Source: an uncultured Methanosarcinales archaeon (lineage in GTDB: Archaea > Nanobdellota > Nanobdellia > Woesearchaeales > GW2011-AR9). Taken from it: 43,910 bases of DNA. The stretch covers positions 1 to 43,910 of the forward strand of contig CAYWPT010000004.1 of assembly GCA_964460605.1 (NCBI GenBank). The letters run 5' to 3'. The notes under the pieces are model-generated. The model did not search any database. It saw nothing but the letters and a program-made list of their open reading frames with translations, and was not told the DNA's origin. This document shows positions 1,354 to 16,783 of the stretch, piece after piece. Position 1 is the stretch's first letter, and the number at the start of each line of letters is the position of its first letter. The translations under genes and the position numbers were made by a program.

Positions 1354-1809
1354 TTATTCATCTTTTATTTTGATTCGTTGTAATCCTTTATACTTTAATC
1401 TTAATTTCTTTTTGTTTTTTACGCCAATGAGAGTAATTTCTTTAGCCATTGCTTTTACTAAATATTCATCACCACCATAGACAACAATATCACCTTTAGT
1501 AAAAGGAGTTTTTCTGAAAAGAACAGTTGTTCTGTAAATCTCTTTACCATCTTTCCTTGAGAATAATGAAGATGTGACATTTAATTCCCCACCAAATCTT
1601 TGTTGTAATCTTTTCCCTAAGCCCAAGGTATACTGGTTATCAGCAATATAGTAATCTAATCCGTTTGTTACTTCTTCAACTTTTGCTACAGGTATTTTAG
1701 ATTGATGGAGTTCTCTCTCTACATAATCTACGATCTCTTGATTTACTAATCTAAGTTGTAGAGTTGATTCGTAATAGTTCGGATGCTTACCTTCAATGCT
1801 TCTTACCAT
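1354..1809 (-). CDS. NMD3-related protein (C-terminal part, no N-terminal Zn fingers)
   Basis: 'YYESTLQLR', 'NGLDYY', 'SLFSRKDGKEIYRTTVLFR' resemble the archaeal NMD3 C-terminal region. Confidence 0.65.
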   Translation of the reverse strand: MVRSIEGKHPNYYESTLQLRLVNQEIVDYVERELHQSKIPVAKVEEVTNGLDYYIADNQYTLGLGKRLQQRFGGELNVTSSLFSRKDGKEIYRTTVLFRKTPFTKGDIVVYGGDEYLVKAMAKEITLIGVKNKKKLRLKYKGLQRIKIKDE

Positions 1810-7199: not shown

Positions 7200-8726
7200 T
7201 TACACTAAATCATGCCTAGCTTTCATATGTCCATAGACAATATTTGAGACCCCACGAATAACATTTCCACGAGTTGAAATCCATGAACCGTAACTTCCAG
7301 TTCTTCTATCTTTTTCAATTATCCCAATTATTGTGTAAGGTACTCTTGCACCATCACGTCCACGAGCTGAGAGTATTCCCATATCTCCACAGAGCATTGC
7401 TGTACTTCCTGTTTTATTCCATACACCAGTTCCTGTTGGAACTCTCGAAGCTCCTGAATAAATTCTATCTCTTCCTGGTAAAGCCATCACTCTTCTTAGT
7501 TCTCTTGATTGTGGAAGGTTTCCATTCCAGAGCTGAAACAAGAATCTACTATAATCATGAGCAGATGCTTTATTCCTATAAGTTCTTCCACTTGTTGGGA
7601 TATACTCAACAATTTGAGTGTCCGGAACTACATGCCCATACTCACGCTGCAAAACTCTTTGCACTGCTAATGGACCGCCTACTGCTCTCATAAGCCAATT
7701 AGTTGCACCATTGCTACTTCTTTGAATTGAAGCTTCTAAGTTTGCCCTACTCTGAGGACCATAAGTTAATCTTCCTCTATTTACTTCATGCATAAATGCT
7801 AAAGCCACAAGTGGTTTTACCATACTTGCACATTGTCGCGGAACATCTTCATTAATTGAAACTAGTTTATCTCCTGTTAAAAAATCATAGACAGACCATG
7901 AGGTATGTTCATCATCTGAAACTCTTCCTGCTCTTCTTTGCCCTGCAATATATCTTTCAATTTCTGCTTCAAGATCACCAGAAGTTGCTGCTACAACACG
8001 CGGAGTTGATCTCTCAACTCTTTGAACTCTTTCTCTTTGGATAACTTCATCTAGATGAGATGATTCACCAAAAATAACATCATTATTTCTCTCAACTATT
8101 GGAGTCGCACCATTATTGTATCCGCCGGATCTAAGTAAACCAGCAAGCCTTTGTGAAGCCGAAGCTGCTCCACTATGATCTCCGGATCTCTTATAGACTA
8201 GAGCAAACTCTCCATCATTTCTTTTTTCAATAACTAACTGCTTTCTAATACTATCTCCTAGAATCCCTTCAACTTCAGCGTAATCTCTTTTGAGTGCATC
8301 AAGGTTCGCACCTTTACCAAAAGCAACATTCCAAAGTCTATGATATCCAGAATCTTGAATATCAACTGCTATTTTAAAACCATGAGGAACTAATGTTCTT
8401 GCATGACTTGCTGCAACTCTTTTTGAAGATGCTTGATCACCATCACGATCATAAATTATCCCAAAGTGCCCATCAGTATCTTGAACAACATGAACATCTT
8501 CAGCAACTCCAGGACCTAAAAGAGCTACAATCTCATCTCGAAGACCGAATGCTTCATCAATGCTAGTAAGTCCAAAATCTCGAGAACTGTAAGAAACGTC
8601 AAACAAACCAGACTCGTCTTGTGCTGCAGCTGAAGAAGGCACACTCAGAGCTCCAACTAGTGCACTCGCGCCTAAGGCATTGAGTACATCTCTTCTACTA
8701 GGATTTCTTAATGTTTCGTCGGACAT
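7200..8726 (-). CDS. Tat-exported class A beta-lactamase/PBP-like serine hydrolase with two N-terminal repeats
   Basis: Twin-arginine 'SRRDVL' + h-region + AxA; SxxK (SMVK), SxN (SSN), KTG (NKTGS). Confidence 0.85.
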   Translation of the reverse strand: MSDETLRNPSRRDVLNALGASALVGALSVPSSAAAQDESGLFDVSYSSRDFGLTSIDEAFGLRDEIVALLGPGVAEDVHVVQDTDGHFGIIYDRDGDQASSKRVAASHARTLVPHGFKIAVDIQDSGYHRLWNVAFGKGANLDALKRDYAEVEGILGDSIRKQLVIEKRNDGEFALVYKRSGDHSGAASASQRLAGLLRSGGYNNGATPIVERNNDVIFGESSHLDEVIQRERVQRVERSTPRVVAATSGDLEAEIERYIAGQRRAGRVSDDEHTSWSVYDFLTGDKLVSINEDVPRQCASMVKPLVALAFMHEVNRGRLTYGPQSRANLEASIQRSSNGATNWLMRAVGGPLAVQRVLQREYGHVVPDTQIVEYIPTSGRTYRNKASAHDYSRFLFQLWNGNLPQSRELRRVMALPGRDRIYSGASRVPTGTGVWNKTGSTAMLCGDMGILSARGRDGARVPYTIIGIIEKDRRTGSYGSWISTRGNVIRGVSNIVYGHMKARHDLV

Positions 8727-9206: not shown

Positions 9207-10943
9207 ATGGATTTTAAGCAATTAGCAGCTGTGTATGAGAATCTTGAAAATACGAGTTCTGGTAATCAAATGAGAGAAATTCTAGCAGAATTTTTCAAAG
9301 AAGTTCCAGTAAATAAGATCCATCTTCTTGCCCATTTAGTTATTGGAAAATTTGCTCCAGACTATGAAAACACTGTGCTTGGTATTGCTGAGAAGTCCCT
9401 TTTGAAGGCACTTGCTAAAGCTTCTGGGCGAAGCGAGAAAGAAGTCAAGGAACTTGCTAAAAAAGAGGGTGATGTTGGCCTTGCTGCAGCCCATTTGTTT
9501 AAGAAAAAACCAATGACACTTGTTCCAGTTGGCACATTGACCATTGATGAGCTTGAAGAAAAGGTCAAAAAGATCATATCTCTTTCTGGAAAAGGAAGTC
9601 AAGAAGAAAAAGAAAAAATTATTATGAGCATGCTGCAAAAATGCTCATCTCAAGAAGCAAAATATCTTTCTCGTTTATTATTAGGTAATATGAGAATTGG
9701 CGTTGCTGATATGACTGTCCTTGATTCATTAGCAATGGCTTTTACTGGTGATAAGAAGAATAAAAAATTGCTTGAGCGCGCCTACAATGTTAATCCTGAT
9801 GCAGGAGCAATAGCAGAGATTGTTGCTGAGAAAGGATTGAAAGGCTTAGAGAAAATTAAAATTGTAGTTGGGCACCCCATTAAAGTAATGCTTGCGCAAC
9901 GAGTTAAGAAAATTTCTGAAATCTTTGAGAAGATCAATGGAGAGATTGCAATTGAAACCAAATATGATGGTGAACGTGTACAAGTACATATGGACAAAGA
10001 GGGACTTGTAAATTTGTATAGTAGAAGAATGGAGAACATTACTTATCAATTCCCAGATATTGTTGAGTACCTACATTCTGAATTAAAAGGAGTGAAAGAC
10101 ATCATCTTTGAAGCTGAAATTATTCCTCTAGGAAAGAAAGGAGAACATTTACATTTTCAAACCTTAATGAAAAGGAAAAGGAAAACTGAAATTGAAAAGT
10201 TTGTCAAAGAGATCCCGGTTGTCCTCTATTGTTTTGATCTTCTTTATCTCAATGGAAAAGAATTAGTACAAGAGAATTATCCTGTTCGTATTAAAAAATT
10301 GAAGAGCATTATTAGTAATGATCATTTGCGTATGAGTGAGACCATTTACACTACTTCTGTTGATGAAGCTGAGGAATTTTTTAATGATCGTATTGAGAAA
10401 GGCTATGAGGGGATCATGGTCAAATCTCAAGAGGATGAAAAATCTGTCTATAAAGCAGGTGCTCGTGATTGGGCTTGGATTAAATGGAAAAAAGAGTATA
10501 TGGGAGATGTTGTGGACACTTATGATTTAGTTGTCATTGGTGCTTTTTATGGTAAAGGTAAACGTTCTGGCAGATATGGTTCATTATTATGTGCTACTTA
10601 TAATCATAAGGATGATGCTTTTGAATCAGTTAGTAAGTTAGGTACTGGAATGACCGATAAAACACTCTCTGAATTGCCTTTGGTTCTTGATGATCATAAA
10701 GTAGACAAGAAACCTGCACGGGTTATTGTGAAAAAAGAAATGTATCCCGATGAATGGTTTGAACCCACTGTTGTTGTCGAAGTTCTTGCTGCTGAGATTA
10801 CTCGTGGCAGTCTTCATTGTTGTGCTGTGAAAGATGGTCGTGGAATAGCTTTGCGATTTCCAAGATTTATTCAAATTCGTGATAATAAAAGTGCTGAGCA
10901 GGCGACCACTAGTAAAGAATTGAGTGATTTGTATGAAAGATAG
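9207..10943 (+). CDS. lig: ATP-dependent DNA ligase
   Basis: KYDGER (motif I), FDLLY, EGIMVK, WIKWK, LRFPRF. Confidence 0.97.
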   Translation: MDFKQLAAVYENLENTSSGNQMREILAEFFKEVPVNKIHLLAHLVIGKFAPDYENTVLGIAEKSLLKALAKASGRSEKEVKELAKKEGDVGLAAAHLFKKKPMTLVPVGTLTIDELEEKVKKIISLSGKGSQEEKEKIIMSMLQKCSSQEAKYLSRLLLGNMRIGVADMTVLDSLAMAFTGDKKNKKLLERAYNVNPDAGAIAEIVAEKGLKGLEKIKIVVGHPIKVMLAQRVKKISEIFEKINGEIAIETKYDGERVQVHMDKEGLVNLYSRRMENITYQFPDIVEYLHSELKGVKDIIFEAEIIPLGKKGEHLHFQTLMKRKRKTEIEKFVKEIPVVLYCFDLLYLNGKELVQENYPVRIKKLKSIISNDHLRMSETIYTTSVDEAEEFFNDRIEKGYEGIMVKSQEDEKSVYKAGARDWAWIKWKKEYMGDVVDTYDLVVIGAFYGKGKRSGRYGSLLCATYNHKDDAFESVSKLGTGMTDKTLSELPLVLDDHKVDKKPARVIVKKEMYPDEWFEPTVVVEVLAAEITRGSLHCCAVKDGRGIALRFPRFIQIRDNKSAEQATTSKELSDLYER

Positions 10944-10989
10944 ATTTTTTTTGGTCAATATTTAAATAAATCAAGATTATTCTCCACTT

Positions 10990-11160
10990 ATGGGAATTGA
11001 AAATTTAATGAAAGTATCAGGTAAAGAGATTGATGGAAGGACGCGAGTCCCACTTTATGCTCCTAAACAAGATAGTGATAAAGAGCCAGCTAAAGTTAAA
11101 AAAACTCAATACAATCCAAATGTTGATTTTAAAATTCCTGATGGAGATTTTGTTTGCTAA
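10990..11160 (+). CDS. 56-aa small protein missed by the ORF track (MGIENLMKVSG...KIPDGDFVC)
   Basis: ATG..TAA open frame; TTTAAATA at 10961-10968 at the locus-typical spacing; T-run after the stop. Confidence 0.6.
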   Translation: MGIENLMKVSGKEIDGRTRVPLYAPKQDSDKEPAKVKKTQYNPNVDFKIPDGDFVC

Positions 11161-11203
11161 TCCTCAAATCCTTAGATAATTTACTATTTTTTTGTCTTGC
11201 AGC

Positions 11204-11230
11204 ATAATCTAATGCATAGATTATCTTTTT
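11204..11230 (+). terminator. Inverted repeat plus T-run between the small ORF and the radical SAM cassette
   Basis: ATAATCTA-ATGCA-TAGATTAT followed by CTTTTT. Confidence 0.35.
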
Positions 11231-11344
11231 GTCTGTTAAATCTAATCTCATTATTTACATAAAGAATAAAACACATATAAAATTTTCTATTTGACAAAAA
11301 TATACAAAAGAGATTTTATAAGTTGTTTTCCAATTTTTAATATT

Positions 11345-12295
11345 ATGTCAAAAGACCAAAGAGGCATTATAGATATAATTGAGACTATGAGACTGCCTTA
11401 TTTAAGAGTTAGTGTTACTGCAAGGTGCAATGCTGCTTGTAAATTTTGTCATAACGAAGGCCAAATAATCCCAAAAAATGGAAGGGGAGAAAATGTGGGC
11501 ATTTCAGAAGCAAGACTATCTTTAGATGATTATACCATTATTGCAGATACTTTTCAAGGAACTTTTAATAAAGCAAAATTTACAGGAGGGGAACCAACTA
11601 TTATCAGTAACTTAGAAGAAATAATCAGAATTTTTGCAGAAAGAGATTATGAAACTTCCATAACCACAAATGGATTTTTATTAGATGAAGATAAACAAAA
11701 AGCCTTACGTGATTCAGGCTTAGATAAAATAAATGTAAGTATCCCTAGTACTGACCCAGAAGTATACAGAGAGATGTTTGGCTATACAGGTGATTTAGAA
11801 ATGGTTTTTGGGAATATCAAAACTCTTGAAAGGTATTTTCCAAAAAAAGCAAAGATAAATTTTATGGGCCTTAGAGGAGTCACAGTTCCTTCATCCCTTG
11901 AAGCTTTGGCAAGGATAAGTGAGGAATCAGGCATAACCATAAGTTGCTTAGAACCTGCCCTATCCAGAACTTGCCAAGAACCAATTTCTGTTGAGGTTAT
12001 AGATTACTTAAGAAGAATATTTGGTGAACCAGAAGTTTATGTTGTCAAAGATGACTTTACTTCAAAAAGATTCTTTAAATATCTGGATGGTGGAGTTTGG
12101 GAGGTAGATGACTTTAGAGGAAGAGAATATAGATCAGAAGCCTTTGATAATGATATCTGTTTAGAATGCCCAAAAGAGAAGATCTGTGTTGAAGGCCCAT
12201 ATGCATTGAGAATATTAGTAAATGGAACAGCTAAACCTTGTTTAATTAGGAATGATAATCATTTTCCATTTTTAAGAGTCAGGAGATATGGATAA
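11345..12295 (+). CDS. MoaA-like radical SAM enzyme with C-terminal Cys cluster
   Basis: 'YLRVSVTARCNAACKFCHNEG', 'FTGGEP', 'ITTNG', C-terminal C-x2-C-x5-C-x17-C; ATG 11345 preferred over TTG 11291 because TTTATAAG at 11315-11322 precedes it. Confidence 0.85.
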   Translation: MSKDQRGIIDIIETMRLPYLRVSVTARCNAACKFCHNEGQIIPKNGRGENVGISEARLSLDDYTIIADTFQGTFNKAKFTGGEPTIISNLEEIIRIFAERDYETSITTNGFLLDEDKQKALRDSGLDKINVSIPSTDPEVYREMFGYTGDLEMVFGNIKTLERYFPKKAKINFMGLRGVTVPSSLEALARISEESGITISCLEPALSRTCQEPISVEVIDYLRRIFGEPEVYVVKDDFTSKRFFKYLDGGVWEVDDFRGREYRSEAFDNDICLECPKEKICVEGPYALRILVNGTAKPCLIRNDNHFPFLRVRRYG

Positions 12296-12836
12296 AATGA
12301 AAAAAGTAATTTGTTTAACTGGACTCTCAGGGTCAGGAAAATCAACATTTTTGGAATATTGCCAAGAGAGAGGTATCCCTAATTTTTATACTGGAGATAT
12401 TATCCCAAAAAATGCCTCAGAAGAAGAAAAAATATCCTTTGGGATTGGATTAAATGAAAGAACTTCTTTTATTAAGAGAGCTCTAACCGCAGCACAAAGA
12501 AGGTATCTCGATTTTGAAACAGTAATTATTGATTCTATTCGTTCAGTTGAAGAATTAGCTTACATAAGAAGCCAATCTCAAGAAAATTTACTTATAGGAC
12601 TAACTTGTTGTAATAGAGAAAGAATAGAAAGAATTAAAAGAAGAGACCCAACTATACAGGTTGAGCAGATTGTTGATAGAGATAATAAAGATCGTGGTTA
12701 TTACGATGGTTATAATTTTGATGTTCCAAAATTATTGGAACTTGCAGATTATGTTATTGATACTAGTAGGAGTCATGAAGATACAAAACAAAGATACTCA
12801 GAGATCTTAGAGGAGGTTTTAAATAATGGAAATTGA
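12288..12836 (+). CDS. P-loop nucleotide kinase (UPF0200 / dephospho-CoA-kinase-like fold)
   Basis: 'LTGLSGSGKST', 'IIDSIRS', lid 'RIERIKRR', 'ADYVID'; overlaps the upstream stop. Confidence 0.8.
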   Translation: MDKMKKVICLTGLSGSGKSTFLEYCQERGIPNFYTGDIIPKNASEEEKISFGIGLNERTSFIKRALTAAQRRYLDFETVIIDSIRSVEELAYIRSQSQENLLIGLTCCNRERIERIKRRDPTIQVEQIVDRDNKDRGYYDGYNFDVPKLLELADYVIDTSRSHEDTKQRYSEILEEVLNNGN

Positions 12837-13365
12837 AGCTAAATTTATTTGTAATGATTTTGAAATTATAAAACAAAAAGCAATAGAACAAGGTTTTGAA
12901 TTAAAAAAAAAAAAACACCAGATTGACACTTATTTTATTGTGAATAAAATCATTGATAATAGACGGTCTTACCTTCGCATTAGAGAGGATAAAATAAAAG
13001 ATACATTATCCCTTGATTTTCACCAAGTTCTGTCTCTTTTAGAAACTGAAGAATATGAAAGTGATATAAGCAGTAAAGAAGCTATAGAAAAATTATTAGA
13101 ATCCCTTGGATATAAGATAATATGTGTTGTTAATAAAAAAAGAGAACAATATACTGACGGAAAATTTACATTAACATTTGATTCAGTAGTAAGTTTAGGG
13201 AATTTTGTGGAATTAGAGATTGAGTCTCAATTAAACGAGGAACTAAATAAAGAATTTTATGATATGTGTCAAAAATTAAATTTAAATGAAGACGATAGAA
13301 TTAAGAAGAAAGGCTACCCAGACTTATTAATTGAAAAAAAGGAGAAGTCTCCAAAAGTTGGTTGA
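12826..13365 (+). CDS. CYTH / class IV adenylate cyclase-like triphosphate tunnel metalloenzyme
   Basis: ExExK 'MEIEAKF', 'QIDTYF', 'YLRIRE', 'LGNFVELEI', 'GYPDLL'; GAGGAGG RBS upstream. Confidence 0.88.
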   Translation: MEIEAKFICNDFEIIKQKAIEQGFELKKKKHQIDTYFIVNKIIDNRRSYLRIREDKIKDTLSLDFHQVLSLLETEEYESDISSKEAIEKLLESLGYKIICVVNKKREQYTDGKFTLTFDSVVSLGNFVELEIESQLNEELNKEFYDMCQKLNLNEDDRIKKKGYPDLLIEKKEKSPKVG

Positions 13366-13940
13366 TCAAAAAATTTATGCCCTTGTTTATGCAAGAGCCA
13401 TAAAATATCTCGAAGCATTAAATGAAAATCTTAAATACCATTCTAGCCTTCATACACTTTCCGTTTTAGAAAATTGTGTATTATTAGCAAAAAAAGAAAA
13501 CATTAATTTAAAAGATACTTTTTTATTAAAAACCGCAGCACTTTATCATGATTTAGGTTTTCTTAGAAGATATGATAATAATGAAGAATTAGCATGTGAT
13601 ATCGCAAGGAAGATTTACTTAAATTGGGATATACAAATGAAGAGCTTAAAATAATCATAGATTTAATTCTCTCTACAAGACTCCCACAAAAACCAGTAAA
13701 CAAAATACAGAAAATTCTCTGCGATGCAGACCTTAGCCACTTAGGCAAAGATAATTTTTTTACAACCACTGAACTTTTAAGGCAAGAGATAAGTATACAT
13801 AAAGAAAAAATAAGTAAAAAAGAGTGGGTAAGAATAAATCTAAAATTTTTTGAGGGTCATTCTTATCACACTAACAGTGCTAAAATGTTATACTCAAAAA
13901 AAAAGAGAATATAGATGTTCTTAAAAAATCTCTTCTATAG
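13358..13940 (+). pseudogene. HD-domain phosphohydrolase split by frameshift(s)
   Basis: 'YHSSLHTLSV' and 'AALYHDLGF' in ORF 13331-13654; 'ILCDADL' in ORF 13624-13914; adding one base at ~13610 joins them (DIARKDLLKLGY); could be a sequencing error. Confidence 0.75.
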
Positions 13941-14397
13941 AATATGTCTTTCCATTAAATGCAACTTCTTCATCTACTTCTTTACCAAAAAAAGCTCTAG
14001 CTAATGGAGCACCCATACTCATAATTCTTATGCTAAGACCACCAAAATCAACTATTTCTCCACCACCAGCAGGTAATATCGCAAAATAGCTCAATCTTTC
14101 TGTTTGTTCATCATAAGCAGAAAAAACAGCCCCCATATTTACTTCATCTCTTCTTTCAGGAAGTTTATTACCCATCATTCTTTCTAAATTAGTTAAATCA
14201 TCAAGTTTCTTTATAATATCATCGGACCTAGCTGCTGCAAGTGATTGAAGCTCTTCTTTCATTGACCCATATCTTGTCTGGGCTGCACCTTCTTCTTTAT
14301 TGGCATAATCTATATTTTCTCTTATATGTGAGGAAGCGTGATCAATCGATTTAGATACTTGTCTATGTACATTTGTATAAAATTCTAAAATATCCAT
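13921..14397 (-). CDS. GreA/GreB-family-like protein
   Basis: Coiled-coil N-terminus with 'AQTRYGS'; C-terminal 'GAV...MSMGAPLARAFFGKEVDEEV..NGKTYSIEEI' matches the GreA/B C-domain pattern. Confidence 0.65.
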   Translation of the reverse strand: MDILEFYTNVHRQVSKSIDHASSHIRENIDYANKEEGAAQTRYGSMKEELQSLAAARSDDIIKKLDDLTNLERMMGNKLPERRDEVNMGAVFSAYDEQTERLSYFAILPAGGGEIVDFGGLSIRIMSMGAPLARAFFGKEVDEEVAFNGKTYSIEEIF

Positions 14398-14479
14398 ATT
14401 TTACAAAAAAAAGGTTTATTTATAATATTTTTGTTTAAAACACAAATTTTTTAAATAAACCTCCTGAATCTCTTTATAT

Positions 14480-16783
14480 ATGACTGAGTTGATTATTACA
14501 GAGAAACCTTCTTCTGCAAAGAAAATGGCTGCAGCTTTAGCTGATGGAAAGCCCGTTGTAAAAAGATTCAAGAAGACTGCATATTATGAATTAAGCCACA
14601 AGGGTAAAGAAATTGTGATTACTTCTGCAGTAGGTCATTTGTATGGATTAGTGGAAGCCGAGAATACTAGCTGGTCTTATCCTAGCTTTAAAATTAAGTG
14701 GCAAGCATCCAATATTGGGAATAAAGCACTTGCTTACGTTAAAGACTATATTGATACTATTAAGAAACTTTCTAAAACTGCCGATGAATTTACCGTTGCA
14801 TGCGATTATGACGTTGAAGGGGAAGTGATTGGTCTGAATGTTATGCGTTTTGCTTGTGGGCAAAAAGATGCACACAGAATGAAATTTTCTACCTTAACTA
14901 AAGGAGATTTAGTAAAATCTTATGAGGGTAAATTAAAAACTATTGATTGGGGTCAAGCTCTAGCTGGTGAGACAAGACATAAATTAGATTGGTTGTATGG
15001 TATTAACTTATCACGTGCACTTACTTCAGCTGTGAAAGCTACTGGAAAGTTTAAAGTTATGAGCGCAGGTAGAGTGCAAGGTCCAGCTTTGAAATTATTA
15101 GTTGATCGTGAGAAAGAGATTATGGCATTTAAGCCAGAACCTTATTGGCAGATTTCTTTGAATGGTAAGCATGGTAGTTCTGCTGTTGAGGCTTGGCATA
15201 GTGCTGATAAGATTTTTGATAAAGAGAGAGTTGCTGAGATTTTATCTAAGGTTGAAGGTGCTAAAGAAGCTTCTATTAAAGAGATCAAAAGAACACAGAG
15301 AAAACAAGCGCCACCTACACCATTTAATTTAACAGATTTACAAAGTGAGTCTTATTCGCAATTTAAAATAACTCCAAAAGATACTCTTTCCATTGCTCAA
15401 GAACTCTATGTAGCTGGAGTAACATCTTATCCAAGAACTTCTTCACAAAAGTTAGACCCTAAATTAGGTTTTAAGAAAATATTAACAGATCTAACTCGTA
15501 ATCCTTTGTATAAAGGTTTAGCTAGTGAATTATTGAAGAAAGATAAGTTAGTTCCTAATGATGGTAAGAAATCAGATCCTGCGCATCCAGCGATTTATCC
15601 AACAGGGATTGTTCCCGGAGACTTACATCCGCGAACACGTAAGGTCTATGATTTAATTGTTAAAAGATTTTTAGCAACTTTTGCTGACCCTGCTCTGCGT
15701 GAGACAATGACAGTAAGGTTAGATGTTAAATCAGAAGAATTTAGTACTAAAGGTACTCGAACACTCAAAGAAAATTGGCATGTTTTCTATAAACCCTATG
15801 TACGTTTAGAAGAGATTACTTTACCTGATATGAAAGAAGGTGAGAAAGTTAATATTGATAAGATAATTAAACATAATAAAGAAACACAACCCCCTAAACG
15901 ATTCAATCAGTCTTCTATTATTAAAGAGTTAGAAAAAAGGAATTTAGGAACTAAAGCTACTCGTGCTGATATTTTAGATCGTTTGTTTAAACGTGGTTAT
16001 ATTGATGGTGTGAAAATTACTGCAACTGAATTAGGTATTGAAACCGTTGGAGTTTTAGAGAAATATGTGCCTGAGATTGTTGATGAGAAATTAACAGTTG
16101 ATTTTGAAGAAAGCATGGCTAAGATTCGTGAAGGTAAAGAAAAAGAAAACAATGTTATTGCTAAGGCTGAAAAGCAATTAGAAAAGTTATTGGCTGATTT
16201 CAAGAAGAAAGAAAAAGAGGTTGGTGAAGAAATTTTGAAATCTCTGCATGAGAGTTGGAATGCTGCTAATTTCATGGGAACTTGTCCTGCATGTAAAGAA
16301 GGAAAATTAATGATGCGTATGGGTAAGTTCGGTCGTTTTGTTGCTTGTAATAAATATCCTGATTGTAAAACTACATTCAATGTTCCTAAAACTGGTGTAG
16401 TAAAGTTTTCAGGTGAGTATGATGAGAATGCATTCCCAATTATTGAAGCTGGAAAAGGTAGACAAAAAGGTAAATTTAGTCTTGCTGGTCATGTTGCTAC
16501 TATGAATGGTGTTTCTGCTAAGAAAGAAGAAACAGAGAAAAAGTATGATGCCGAAGGTATGACTTGTCCTGCTTGTAACAAAGGCCAAATGGTTTTACGT
16601 AAAGGCTTTTACGGTGAGTTTTTAGGATGTAACAACTATCCTAAATGTCAAACATTAATGAATATCAAAGATGGTGTTGTGCAGGTTGATAAACCGATTA
16701 CTAAAAAGCCAAAAGCTAAGACTGCAAAGAAAAAGACAGTTAAGAAGAAAAGTGTTAAAAAGAAAGCAGTAAAAAAGAAGTAA
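14480..16783 (+). CDS. topA: Type IA DNA topoisomerase with Zn ribbons and Lys-rich tail
   Basis: TOPRIM 'ITEKPS', 'DYDVEGE', 'SAGRVQ', catalytic 'SYPRT', two CPAC...C..YP.C ribbons. Confidence 0.96.
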   Translation: MTELIITEKPSSAKKMAAALADGKPVVKRFKKTAYYELSHKGKEIVITSAVGHLYGLVEAENTSWSYPSFKIKWQASNIGNKALAYVKDYIDTIKKLSKTADEFTVACDYDVEGEVIGLNVMRFACGQKDAHRMKFSTLTKGDLVKSYEGKLKTIDWGQALAGETRHKLDWLYGINLSRALTSAVKATGKFKVMSAGRVQGPALKLLVDREKEIMAFKPEPYWQISLNGKHGSSAVEAWHSADKIFDKERVAEILSKVEGAKEASIKEIKRTQRKQAPPTPFNLTDLQSESYSQFKITPKDTLSIAQELYVAGVTSYPRTSSQKLDPKLGFKKILTDLTRNPLYKGLASELLKKDKLVPNDGKKSDPAHPAIYPTGIVPGDLHPRTRKVYDLIVKRFLATFADPALRETMTVRLDVKSEEFSTKGTRTLKENWHVFYKPYVRLEEITLPDMKEGEKVNIDKIIKHNKETQPPKRFNQSSIIKELEKRNLGTKATRADILDRLFKRGYIDGVKITATELGIETVGVLEKYVPEIVDEKLTVDFEESMAKIREGKEKENNVIAKAEKQLEKLLADFKKKEKEVGEEILKSLHESWNAANFMGTCPACKEGKLMMRMGKFGRFVACNKYPDCKTTFNVPKTGVVKFSGEYDENAFPIIEAGKGRQKGKFSLAGHVATMNGVSAKKEETEKKYDAEGMTCPACNKGQMVLRKGFYGEFLGCNNYPKCQTLMNIKDGVVQVDKPITKKPKAKTAKKKTVKKKSVKKKAVKKK

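Follow-up and report, generated by a model that had tools for sequence, protein, structure and literature searches.

To our knowledge, few natural ribose-modified nucleotides exist: viperins make 3'-deoxy-3',4'-didehydro nucleoside triphosphates (ddhNTPs), 4'-thionucleosides occur in albomycin and in Photorhabdus, and oxetanocin is a further case. Antiviral or antibiotic chemistry has come out of each of them. Two of these systems are described by Son et al. (2025, PMC12691670): i) in albomycin biosynthesis AbmM replaces the oxygen of a furanose ring by sulfur, with its own [4Fe-4S] cluster as the sulfur donor and with the nucleoside kinase AbmG as its partner; and ii) in Photorhabdus the genes thmA (an enzyme of the radical S-adenosylmethionine (SAM) type), thmB (an AbmG-like kinase) and thmC (a nucleoside triphosphatase) suffice for the formation of 4'-thiothymidine, thmC by itself giving self-resistance. 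Here we analyse a compact gene cassette around a radical SAM enzyme that is found in a stretch of 43,910 nucleotides from an uncultured archaeon (contig CAYWPT010000004.1, assigned to the Woesearchaeales; referred to as the window in the following). We consider it, with a probability of about 0.58, to be a mobile accessory cassette for the synthesis of an antimetabolite, namely a nucleotide or nucleoside analogue in which the ribose is modified (possibly 4'-thio), and to carry hydrolases for maturation or self-protection.

The window is one contig of a 0.86 Mb assembly that consists of 34 contigs and is 89% complete; since TBP is encoded in it, the organism is an archaeon. The cassette and its direct neighbours comprise the following elements.

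9207-10943: gene of an ATP-dependent DNA ligase (lig), the 5' neighbour of the cassette
11314-11321, forward strand: TATA-like element TTTTATAA, about 27 nt upstream of the ATG of the radical SAM gene, read by eye
11345-12295, forward strand: radical SAM gene (316 aa; PF04055, Radical_SAM, E 2e-23)
12288-12836, forward strand: gene of a P-loop nucleotide kinase of the archaeal UPF0200/AdkA-like type (182 aa; AAA_18, E 1e-10)
12826-13365, forward strand: gene of a CYTH protein or triphosphate-tunnel metalloenzyme (TTM) (179 aa; PF01928, E 2e-16)
13331-13654, forward strand: N-terminal part of an HD phosphohydrolase, with the H...HD motif (PF01966, E 1.6e-5, N-terminal half only)
13624-13914, forward strand: C-terminal part of the HD phosphohydrolase in another frame, as read from the frames of the sequence
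13921-14397, reverse strand: gene of a Gre/Gfh1-like factor, named GreL here (158 aa), convergent with the operon and located between HD and topA (PF01272, 21.2 bits at a cut-off of 26.9)
14480-16783: topA, the 3' neighbour of the cassette

An earlier reading of the bare DNA letters (the sequence-only reading) had described four co-oriented, overlapping genes between lig and topA that encode a radical SAM enzyme, a kinase, a CYTH protein and an HD hydrolase. This layout was confirmed (11345-13914, forward strand) and Pfam and NCBIfam returned the same four folds; the fifth, convergent gene had been missed, and GreL, of which homologues were found in 7 other loci, is a conserved partner within this neighbourhood. 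The genes are tightly packed, with overlaps of 8 nt (radical SAM/kinase) and 11 nt (kinase/CYTH), and the HD gene likely starts at a TTG at position 13358 that overlaps the CYTH stop. The TATA-like element is possibly the promoter of a near-leaderless operon. The GC content of the cassette (0.28-0.30) differs from that of its flanks (0.34-0.37).

The radical SAM enzyme was compared with MoaA (PDB 1tv7, 2fb2). Family members are regularly misnamed MoaA or cyclic pyranopterin phosphate synthase in the source databases, and one of them (P0016) is named 'GTP 3',8-cyclase' by one source. The protein shares with MoaA the N-terminal LRxSxTxxCN...C..C, GGEP and TTNG motifs, a C-terminal Fe-S domain and several phosphate-binding basic residues; the MoaA equivalog models are its best-scoring named families, and a fold search with its AlphaFold2 (AF2) model (predicted local distance difference test, pLDDT, 91.6) gave MoaA as the nearest neighbour (Z 24.4, 270 residues aligned), with the viperins at about Z 18 and AbmM at Z 17.0 (root-mean-square deviation 4.4). 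The scores on the named models are nevertheless only about one third of the cut-offs (TIGR02668 121.6 bits against 325.25, NF001199 115.5 against 231, TIGR02666 108 against 284), and the Mob_synth_C domain (PF06463) was not matched by Pfam in the window protein, while the true MoaAs lower in the same match list do have it. The protein carries the cluster motif CxxxCxFCHNEG, FTGGEP, TTNG and WExDDFR, and all details quoted in the sequence-only reading were recovered, i.e. LRVSVTARCNAACKFCHNEG, KFTGGEP, SCLE, YALR, the C-terminal spacing Cx2Cx5Cx17C (CLECPKEKICVEGPYALRILVNGTAKPC) and the lack of a C-terminal GG. MoaA has three C-terminal cysteines (Cx2Cx13C) and a GG tail that is significant in that enzyme, whereas the window protein has four cysteines (C272, C275, C281 and C299, all invariant in its family) and ends in ...RVRRYG; the C-termini are not conserved across the family. 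The alignment of 36 family members (A1) has 26 invariant residues, including CxxxCxFCHN, GGEP, E..DFR and the four C-terminal cysteines, and shows the C-terminal signature CxxCx5C(V/T)EGPYALR...PCLIRxDN. All 26 are kept in the window protein.

The position of the family was then evaluated in a quick maximum-likelihood tree of 132 rows, which was rooted at the midpoint only, the root itself not being inferred. The family contributed 48 of the rows; the others were 47 proteins that likewise have the Cx2Cx5C spacing (including four from loci of Streptomyces and Paenibacillaceae), 36 proteins with the MoaA motif (35 drawn at random from 125, and an archaeal MoaA from locus L044) and rSAM2, a paralogue from the same genome that is described below; only proteins of 280-400 aa (280-520 aa in the case of the family) were admitted, and AbmM was not among the rows. 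The family forms a clade with a support of 99 in the Shimodaira-Hasegawa-like approximate likelihood ratio test (SH-aLRT), or 96 once the motif columns are dropped. One branch (SH-aLRT 93) separates all 95 Cx2Cx5C proteins from the MoaA-motif proteins, and without the motif columns the MoaA proteins still form one side (SH-aLRT 90). The comparison with MoaA that had been proposed earlier consequently places the family on the non-MoaA side of the tree.

The genome points in the same direction. There are no genes of the molybdenum cofactor (Moco) pathway in the window, as had been noted before, and a profile search of the whole assembly gave no match for MoaC, MoCF_biosynth or molybdopterin oxidoreductase, which at 89% completeness means that these genes were not found and not that their absence is proven; the same models matched in 11, 13 and 11 of 14 control genomes, respectively. 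The neighbours are nucleotide kinases and hydrolases, and MoaC was never encountered beside a family member in the 19 informative loci discussed below. A divergent but genuine GTP 3',8-cyclase that serves a molybdenum or tungsten cofactor amid unrelated neighbours, as the best named models, the closest fold and the database name of P0016 might suggest, is already close to refuted by these results. True MoaA was rejected on the scores below cut-off, the missing Mob_synth_C, the cysteine spacing, the side of the tree and the Moco pathway that was not found, and the enzyme is not MoaA, as the sequence-only reading had suggested.

More can be said about a possible substrate from the residues that we take to bind GTP in MoaA (R17, K69, R71, K163, R192, R266 and R268; the title of PDB entry 2fb2 names R17/266/268). 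In a profile alignment with the MoaA of S. aureus, the window protein retains the counterparts of R17, K69, K163 and R268, has lost those of R192 and R266 (S and Y, respectively) and carries K for R71, a conservative change at a position that varies within the family. The earlier claim that several GTP-binding arginines are lacking consequently holds for R192 and R266 and not for R71. This mixture of kept and lost basic residues fits a nucleotide-phosphate substrate with a base recognition unlike that of MoaA, and four cysteine ligands would leave no open iron on the auxiliary cluster for base binding in the MoaA manner. A nucleotide substrate is plausible on these grounds and by the fold, which is nearest to MoaA and then to the viperins.

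Among all PDB sequences, the best match of the window enzyme is 8wm2 (54 bits; MoaA 1tv7 has 40 bits), and a profile of the family finds the same entry with 105 bits (E 4e-29; MoaA 94.6). The title of 8wm2 is 'Crystal structure of AbmM'. Aligned to the family profile, AbmM shares both the CxxxCxFCHNEG and the Cx2Cx5Cx17C motif, by which the family belongs to an AbmM-like (Cx2Cx5Cx17C) class that is defined within this analysis and has no curated model. As regards the nearest relative, sequence favours AbmM and fold favours MoaA. The enzyme is therefore MoaA-derived and shares a derived auxiliary-cluster motif with AbmM, from which an AbmM-like chemistry might be extrapolated. Judged by sequence, the closest characterised enzyme would be AbmM and not a viperin or OxsB. 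A nucleotide-sugar substrate and a nucleoside kinase partner are features of AbmM (PMC12691670). It differs from the window enzyme in that the match is distant (54 bits, Z 17.0) and leaves the middle of the protein unaligned by sequence, in that no siderophore-peptide cluster surrounds the window gene, and in that the hosts are archaea and uncultured bacteria and not Streptomyces. For the cassette as a whole the closest precedent, by analogy, would be thmABC of Photorhabdus asymbiotica, which according to the same source (PMC12691670) is likewise a compact combination of a radical SAM enzyme, a kinase and a nucleoside triphosphate (NTP) hydrolase with flanks that vary between genomes; it differs in having no Gre-like gene and in the AbmG-like type of ThmB. 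AbmM, for the enzyme by sequence, and thmABC, for the cluster, hence replace the viperins and the OxsB-OxsA pair that had been put forward as precedents in the sequence-only reading.

Members of the family are rare: of 1.84 billion cluster representatives searched, 24 reached E<=1e-30. A word-index search recovered about 35 proteins at 40-48% identity, below which the scores fell abruptly to those of true MoaAs (<=83 bits). The hosts are Pacearchaeota, metagenome-assembled genomes (MAGs) of gut Alphaproteobacteria, Pseudobdellovibrionaceae, Verrucomicrobiota and Pirellulaceae, complemented by metagenome contigs, so that the family is patchy in its distribution and has spread by transfer in archaea and at least four bacterial phyla. 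We compared the genetic context in 19 informative loci besides the window, after setting aside duplicates (L032, identical to L017, and L042, identical to L016), loci in which the contig ends in or at the radical SAM gene or holds a fragment only (L031, L035, L041, L045) and the true MoaA locus L044. A kinase, CYTH or NUDIX gene, checked with Pfam, lies directly beside the radical SAM gene in 18 of the 19. The partners are distributed as follows.

Kinase beside the radical SAM gene: 7 loci (L008, L015, L016, L017, L033, L037, L043), directly after it
CYTH beside the radical SAM gene: 9 loci (L011, L014, L033, L034, L036, L037, L038, L039, L040), 36-56% identical to the window CYTH
NUDIX beside the radical SAM gene: 5 loci (L008, L009, L010, L012, L020); the radical SAM gene of L020 is an N-terminal fragment only
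Gre-like gene: 7 loci (L014, L015, L016, L017, L033, L037, L043)
No adjoining partner: 1 locus (L013)

With the window included, 7 of the 8 loci in which GreL or the kinase is present have both. Moreover, two family members are fusion proteins: in P0124 (480 aa) the radical SAM enzyme is fused to CYTH and in P0130 (498 aa) to an AAA_18 kinase, which clinches the functional linkage of the radical SAM enzyme to both. The conservation of the neighbourhood that had been proposed as a check was therefore found for the kinase, for CYTH and for its counterpart NUDIX; a homologue of the window HD gene was present in none of the 19 loci, and HD, which is also frameshifted here, is not a conserved partner. 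Of the two outcomes that the sequence-only reading had named as speaking against it, a grouping with MoaA and genes that are never neighbours elsewhere, neither was observed for three of the four genes, the HD gene being the one for which the proposal fails. Occurrence in two domains of life amid flanking genes that change from locus to locus indicates that the cassette genes travel as a unit. Additional nucleotide genes occur in single loci: in L033, CYTH is followed by a PfkB kinase, and L011 contains a gene that resembles HAD nucleotidases. In the literature searched, the scope of which did not extend to the paywalled work on AbmM, no description of the family or of the gene combination was found.

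A number of further genes were seen around the family. Divergently from the radical SAM gene, four archaeal-type loci encode a protein of about 390-415 aa that has a weak winged helix-turn-helix (wHTH) of the ArsR type at its C-terminus (L011 4657-5895, L033 3603-4826, L036 784-2028 and L037 3704-4870, all on the reverse strand; the wHTH was found by Pfam in the first two and by eye in the other two). It has no counterpart in the window and may be a regulator of the cassette. The gut alphaproteobacterial loci have a conserved open reading frame (ORF) of 139-141 aa without a Pfam match, convergent to the radical SAM(-NUDIX) genes (L009 7376-7801 and L013 6966-7391, both reverse strand, with equivalents in L010 and L012). 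In L043, a Cas2-like ORF of 98 aa, recognised by eye (1362-1658, forward strand), precedes the verrucomicrobial-type radical SAM-kinase-GreL cassette at a distance of about 3 kb upstream. A distant sister group with the Cx2Cx5Cx17C spacing is found in natural-product-like clusters of Paenibacillaceae (L021, L024, L025) and Streptomyces (L018-L030); with 31 bits to 8wm2 it was ruled out as the AbmM orthologue. In the Paenibacillaceae, these motif-sharing relatives (25-28% identity) have a major facilitator superfamily (MFS) transporter and NUDIX as neighbours in L024 and L025, and genes for a dTMP-kinase-like protein, a nucleoside diphosphate kinase (NDK), a Mur ligase, a carrier protein and an N-oxygenase in L021. 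These loci look like clusters for secreted nucleoside natural products.

The combination of a radical SAM enzyme and a nucleotide kinase with a sporadic distribution is also characteristic of the prokaryotic viperins (pVip) and their associated kinase (VakA), and a defence function of that type had been suggested. The enzyme would then form a 3'-deoxy-3',4'-didehydro chain terminator by dehydrating an NTP, which the kinase would feed to it in the pVip-kinase style, and the hydrolases would limit self-toxicity. The patchy distribution, as expected from horizontal transfer, suits a defence gene, viperins are the next neighbours by fold, and viperin models do match the N-terminal half of the enzyme (NF038283 58.1 bits; padloc pVip E 2e-17), as the kinase matches VakA (3.5e-5) and the kinase domain of a defence dCTPase (1e-13); the Cas2-like ORF of L043 may be counted here as well. 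The viperin score is, however, far from its cut-off of 180, lies below the MoaA scores and is confined to the shared core (residues 42-161), and the family has a C-terminal auxiliary-cluster domain with four cysteines that viperins are without. The flanks do not speak for defence either. The 114 ORFs (>=90 aa, within <=5 kb) that flank the cassette in 15 loci showed no recognisable defence island and none of the enrichment for which the sequence-only reading had proposed a test, as judged without a statistical test: padloc found only generic ABC-type ATPases that match mad3 and mad8 (4 members each), and Pfam found mixed housekeeping families. Within the same 114 ORFs, ASCH and GNAT domains recur (3 members each). 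Close matches to the radical SAM enzyme were not obtained with tblastn in 50,697 phage and 72,556 plasmid records, where 17 and 162 records, respectively, have distant matches (<=33% identity) that are mostly true MoaAs or other radical SAM enzymes. Viperin-type defence is possible, and yet we consider it clearly improbable, as it is disfavoured by the family scores and by the flanks.

The kinase has the Walker A motif GLSGSGKST and conserved DSxRS and RxxRxxxRD motifs, matches AAA_18 and AAA_17 in Pfam, and its profile has the UPF0200/AdkA-like SSO1041 (3lw7/3h0k) as best solved match (75 bits, full length). It further matches the kinase part of an anti-phage dCTP deaminase model (E 8e-10; padloc dCTPase 1e-13) and, weakly, padloc VakA (3.5e-5). 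The CYTH protein scores 55.8 bits on the cyaB model of class IV adenylate cyclases (cut-off 57.95), and its nearest solved relatives are the archaeal TTMs 2dc4, 1yem and Saci_0718. GreL matches GreA models over its full length (E 9e-6). Its AF2 model (pLDDT 76.5, with 56-73 in the coiled coil) has a long antiparallel N-terminal coiled coil and a C-terminal Gre-type beta domain, and this predicted structure superposes on Gfh1 in complex with RNA polymerase (3aoh) at Z 11.6 over 144 residues, and on GreA (1grj) at Z 11.1; over Gfh1, GreA and GreB the matches comprise 139-144 residues at Z 8.6-11.6, which is the architecture of the Gre family. The differences from Gre, Gfh1 and Rnk are the Pfam score (21.2 against the cut-off of 26.9), the archaeal host, the location inside a nucleotide cassette and the tip of the coiled coil. 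This tip holds the most conserved residues (G-A-M-x-S-R-Y-D-T in alignment A2) and appears to be without the paired D/E spacing of GreA, in which acidic residues at the tip drive transcript cleavage. GreL is the only PF01272 match in the assembly, and this domain was found in 9 bacterial and in none of the 4 archaeal control genomes. A word-index search with GreL retrieved only GreL itself among 18 candidates, and its look-alikes in the Atlas are bacterial GreA/GreB clusters (0.91-0.92), which is to be taken as a lead only. A complex prediction with the radical SAM enzyme, the kinase and GreL scored 0.25 against a mark of 0.32 and carries no weight either way.

These partners could also be fitted to a signalling or regulatory nucleotide. 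The radical SAM enzyme would in that case make a modified NTP, CYTH would be a class IV-type cyclase, or CYTH, NUDIX and HD would degrade an alarmone-like molecule, and GreL would be the effector on the polymerase, comparable to DksA with ppGpp. Alarmones are classically formed and broken down by kinases and by HD and NUDIX proteins, the CYTH protein nearly reaches the cut-off of the cyclase model, and GreL, with its full Gre/Gfh1 architecture and conserved tip, accompanies the kinase almost throughout. On the other hand, CYTH and NUDIX interchange between hosts, which suits hydrolysis better than cyclisation, and the solved relatives of CYTH are of the triphosphatase type. A regulator that depends on the RNA polymerase of its host should not cross between archaea and bacteria. 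Gre domains were found in 0 of the 4 control archaea, and a core regulator should not occur so sporadically. We regard a signalling role as quite improbable.

The cassette is accessory and horizontally mobile. In a sister genome of the same genus (G263), lig (77% identity) likewise lies next to topA (71%), and the gap between them (10943-14480 in the window) is filled by an unrelated insert of 5.4 kb (L116, G263:C1:278700-284300) that encodes Cys-rich surface proteins (secreted or membrane), some of which have wHTH-like C-terminal ends. Because the sister genome carries a different insert at this place, the lig-topA gap is a variable insertion spot. Close matches to the window radical SAM enzyme were not found in 400 other sampled genomes of the phylum, one same-genus genome included; the sole match is a weak one in G357 (36% identity, 73 bits). 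The genome of the window does have a second, paralogous cassette on another contig (C13, 16012-18466; about 210-2667 of L117), which consists of the radical SAM gene rSAM2, a fusion of NDK and HD, and NUDIX, the stop of each gene overlapping the start of the next. The protein encoded by rSAM2 is MoaA-like, has a long branch and is 25% identical to the window enzyme. The pair of rSAM2 and NDK-HD was recovered in one other genome (G361), which belongs to the same taxonomic order, and in none of the 399 further sampled genomes of the phylum.

The state of both cassettes bears on the question whether the window cassette is active. The reading frame of HD is broken at about 13605-13625, and the frameshift is present, with 0 gaps and no differences, in contigs of all 4 public marine or seawater runs that cover the site, of which 2 may be the source of the window and the other 2 are further samples of one of those two studies. 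The break is not the artefact of a single assembly; HD is either a pseudogene or a gene that is split or recoded. In rSAM2, an in-frame TGA precedes the Cys motif with no ATG, GTG or TTG in between, for which an indel, a recoding event or an odd start could be responsible. It might be supposed from the frameshift, from the rSAM2 stop without an ordinary start, from the atypical GC content and from the sister genome, which has neither cassette, that the cassette was acquired by transfer and is now a decaying remnant without function in this archaeon. The radical SAM, kinase, CYTH and GreL genes are nevertheless intact, their overlaps are tight and the 26 invariant residues of the family are kept; and since HD is not a core member elsewhere, its loss need not disable the cassette. 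This explanation appears very unlikely to us.

Two other ORFs of the window may be mentioned. Between lig and the cassette lies an ORF of 56 aa (10990-11160, forward strand) that has no Pfam or NCBIfam match and may not be a gene. An ORF of 508 aa (7200-8726, reverse strand) shows, by eye, a twin-arginine-like signal and an SxxK serine-hydrolase-like motif; it may be foreign, as the GC content of the window is highest there (0.39, compared with about 0.33).

The best reading of the cassette remains that it makes, activates and turns over a modified nucleotide, as the sequence-only reading had proposed, because the radical SAM enzyme is not MoaA and is tied to enzymes that act on nucleotide phosphates. 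The following sequence of events may be envisaged. The P-loop kinase would supply or trap a phosphorylated substrate, from nucleoside monophosphate (NMP) to nucleoside diphosphate (NDP) or NTP, or alternatively activate an intermediate in the manner of AbmG. The radical SAM enzyme, with its MoaA-type core and an auxiliary [4Fe-4S] cluster on the four cysteines, would abstract a hydrogen from the ribose of the bound nucleotide and rewrite the sugar. Because of the link to AbmM, a 4'-thionucleotide is our leading guess for the specific product, and a tentative one. The triphosphate hydrolases (CYTH here, NUDIX in other hosts, and the local HD, now broken) would subsequently remove phosphates from the product, by which it could be matured to the nucleoside or NMP, or the NTP pool of the producer could be kept clean, as ThmC does for 4'-thiothymidine. 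GreL would be a further accessory that protects, modulates or targets a polymerase or works together with the kinase. The purpose of the product could be antagonism or an antiviral effect.

Several observations weigh against the production of a nucleotide analogue, and in particular against an AbmM-like chemistry. With regard to the enzyme, the match to AbmM is distant and spans only the N-terminal 130 residues and a weak C-terminal stretch, MoaA is much nearer than AbmM by fold (Z 24.4 against 17.0), and the FCHNEG motif occurs also in the true archaeal MoaA of L044 (Cx2Cx13C, with an adjoining MoaC-like ORF recognised by eye). With 95 of the 259 proteins that were fetched, the Cx2Cx5C class is a large one; it includes several members that their sources name MoaA, and surely holds several chemistries. 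With regard to the genetic context, many of the loci stem from related MAGs (Pacearchaeota in L011, L034 and L036; gut Alphaproteobacteria in L009, L010 and L012), so that the counts over 19 loci overstate their independence; the verrucomicrobial and planctomycete loci have the kinase and GreL and no hydrolase, by which the hydrolase is not obligatory; and an exporter was not linked to the cassette in any of the close-family loci. We know of no target for a Gre-type factor on archaeal RNA polymerase. The HD frameshift and the start of rSAM2 imply that one or both cassettes may be decaying. As to the precedents, the resemblance to thmABC is an analogy of architecture, and the window kinase is of the UPF0200/AAA_18 type and had no Pfam match to the dNK domain (PF01712), which is the type of AbmG and ThmB. 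ThmA is reported to have no significant identity to the albomycin radical SAM enzymes (PMC12691670).

Taking the parts together, one may picture an undescribed inter-domain mobile system in which an AbmM-like radical SAM enzyme rewrites the ring of an ordinary NTP or NDP, to a 4'-thio nucleotide or in another way, the phosphorylation state is set by a dedicated kinase together with CYTH, NUDIX or HD hydrolases that can replace one another, and GreL with its rebuilt tip is the polymerase arm, either shielding the polymerase of the producer or aiming the analogue at that of an invader. In this complete form the proposal is unlikely. If it were true, a pathway of the thionucleotide type would be on record for the first time in archaea and in uncultured bacteria of gut and marine origin, GreL would be the first protein of the Gre family to be linked to the chemistry of small-molecule nucleotides, and it would mean that nucleotide-analogue warfare matters to the lifestyle of an organism with a symbiont-sized genome of 0.86 Mb and two such cassettes. 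Among the radical SAM cassettes for nucleoside analogues, what is new here is the enzyme clade, the set of partners (CYTH, the UPF0200-type kinase and the Gre-like factor) and the host range, which was not expected. The family is a separate clade with partners of its own, within a much larger and unexplored Cx2Cx5Cx17C class, and its recognition would correct a Moco-pathway annotation in genomes in which no Moco pathway is detected. This small set of genes could reveal a new nucleotide analogue, a new logic of self-protection and a non-canonical role of a Gre factor.

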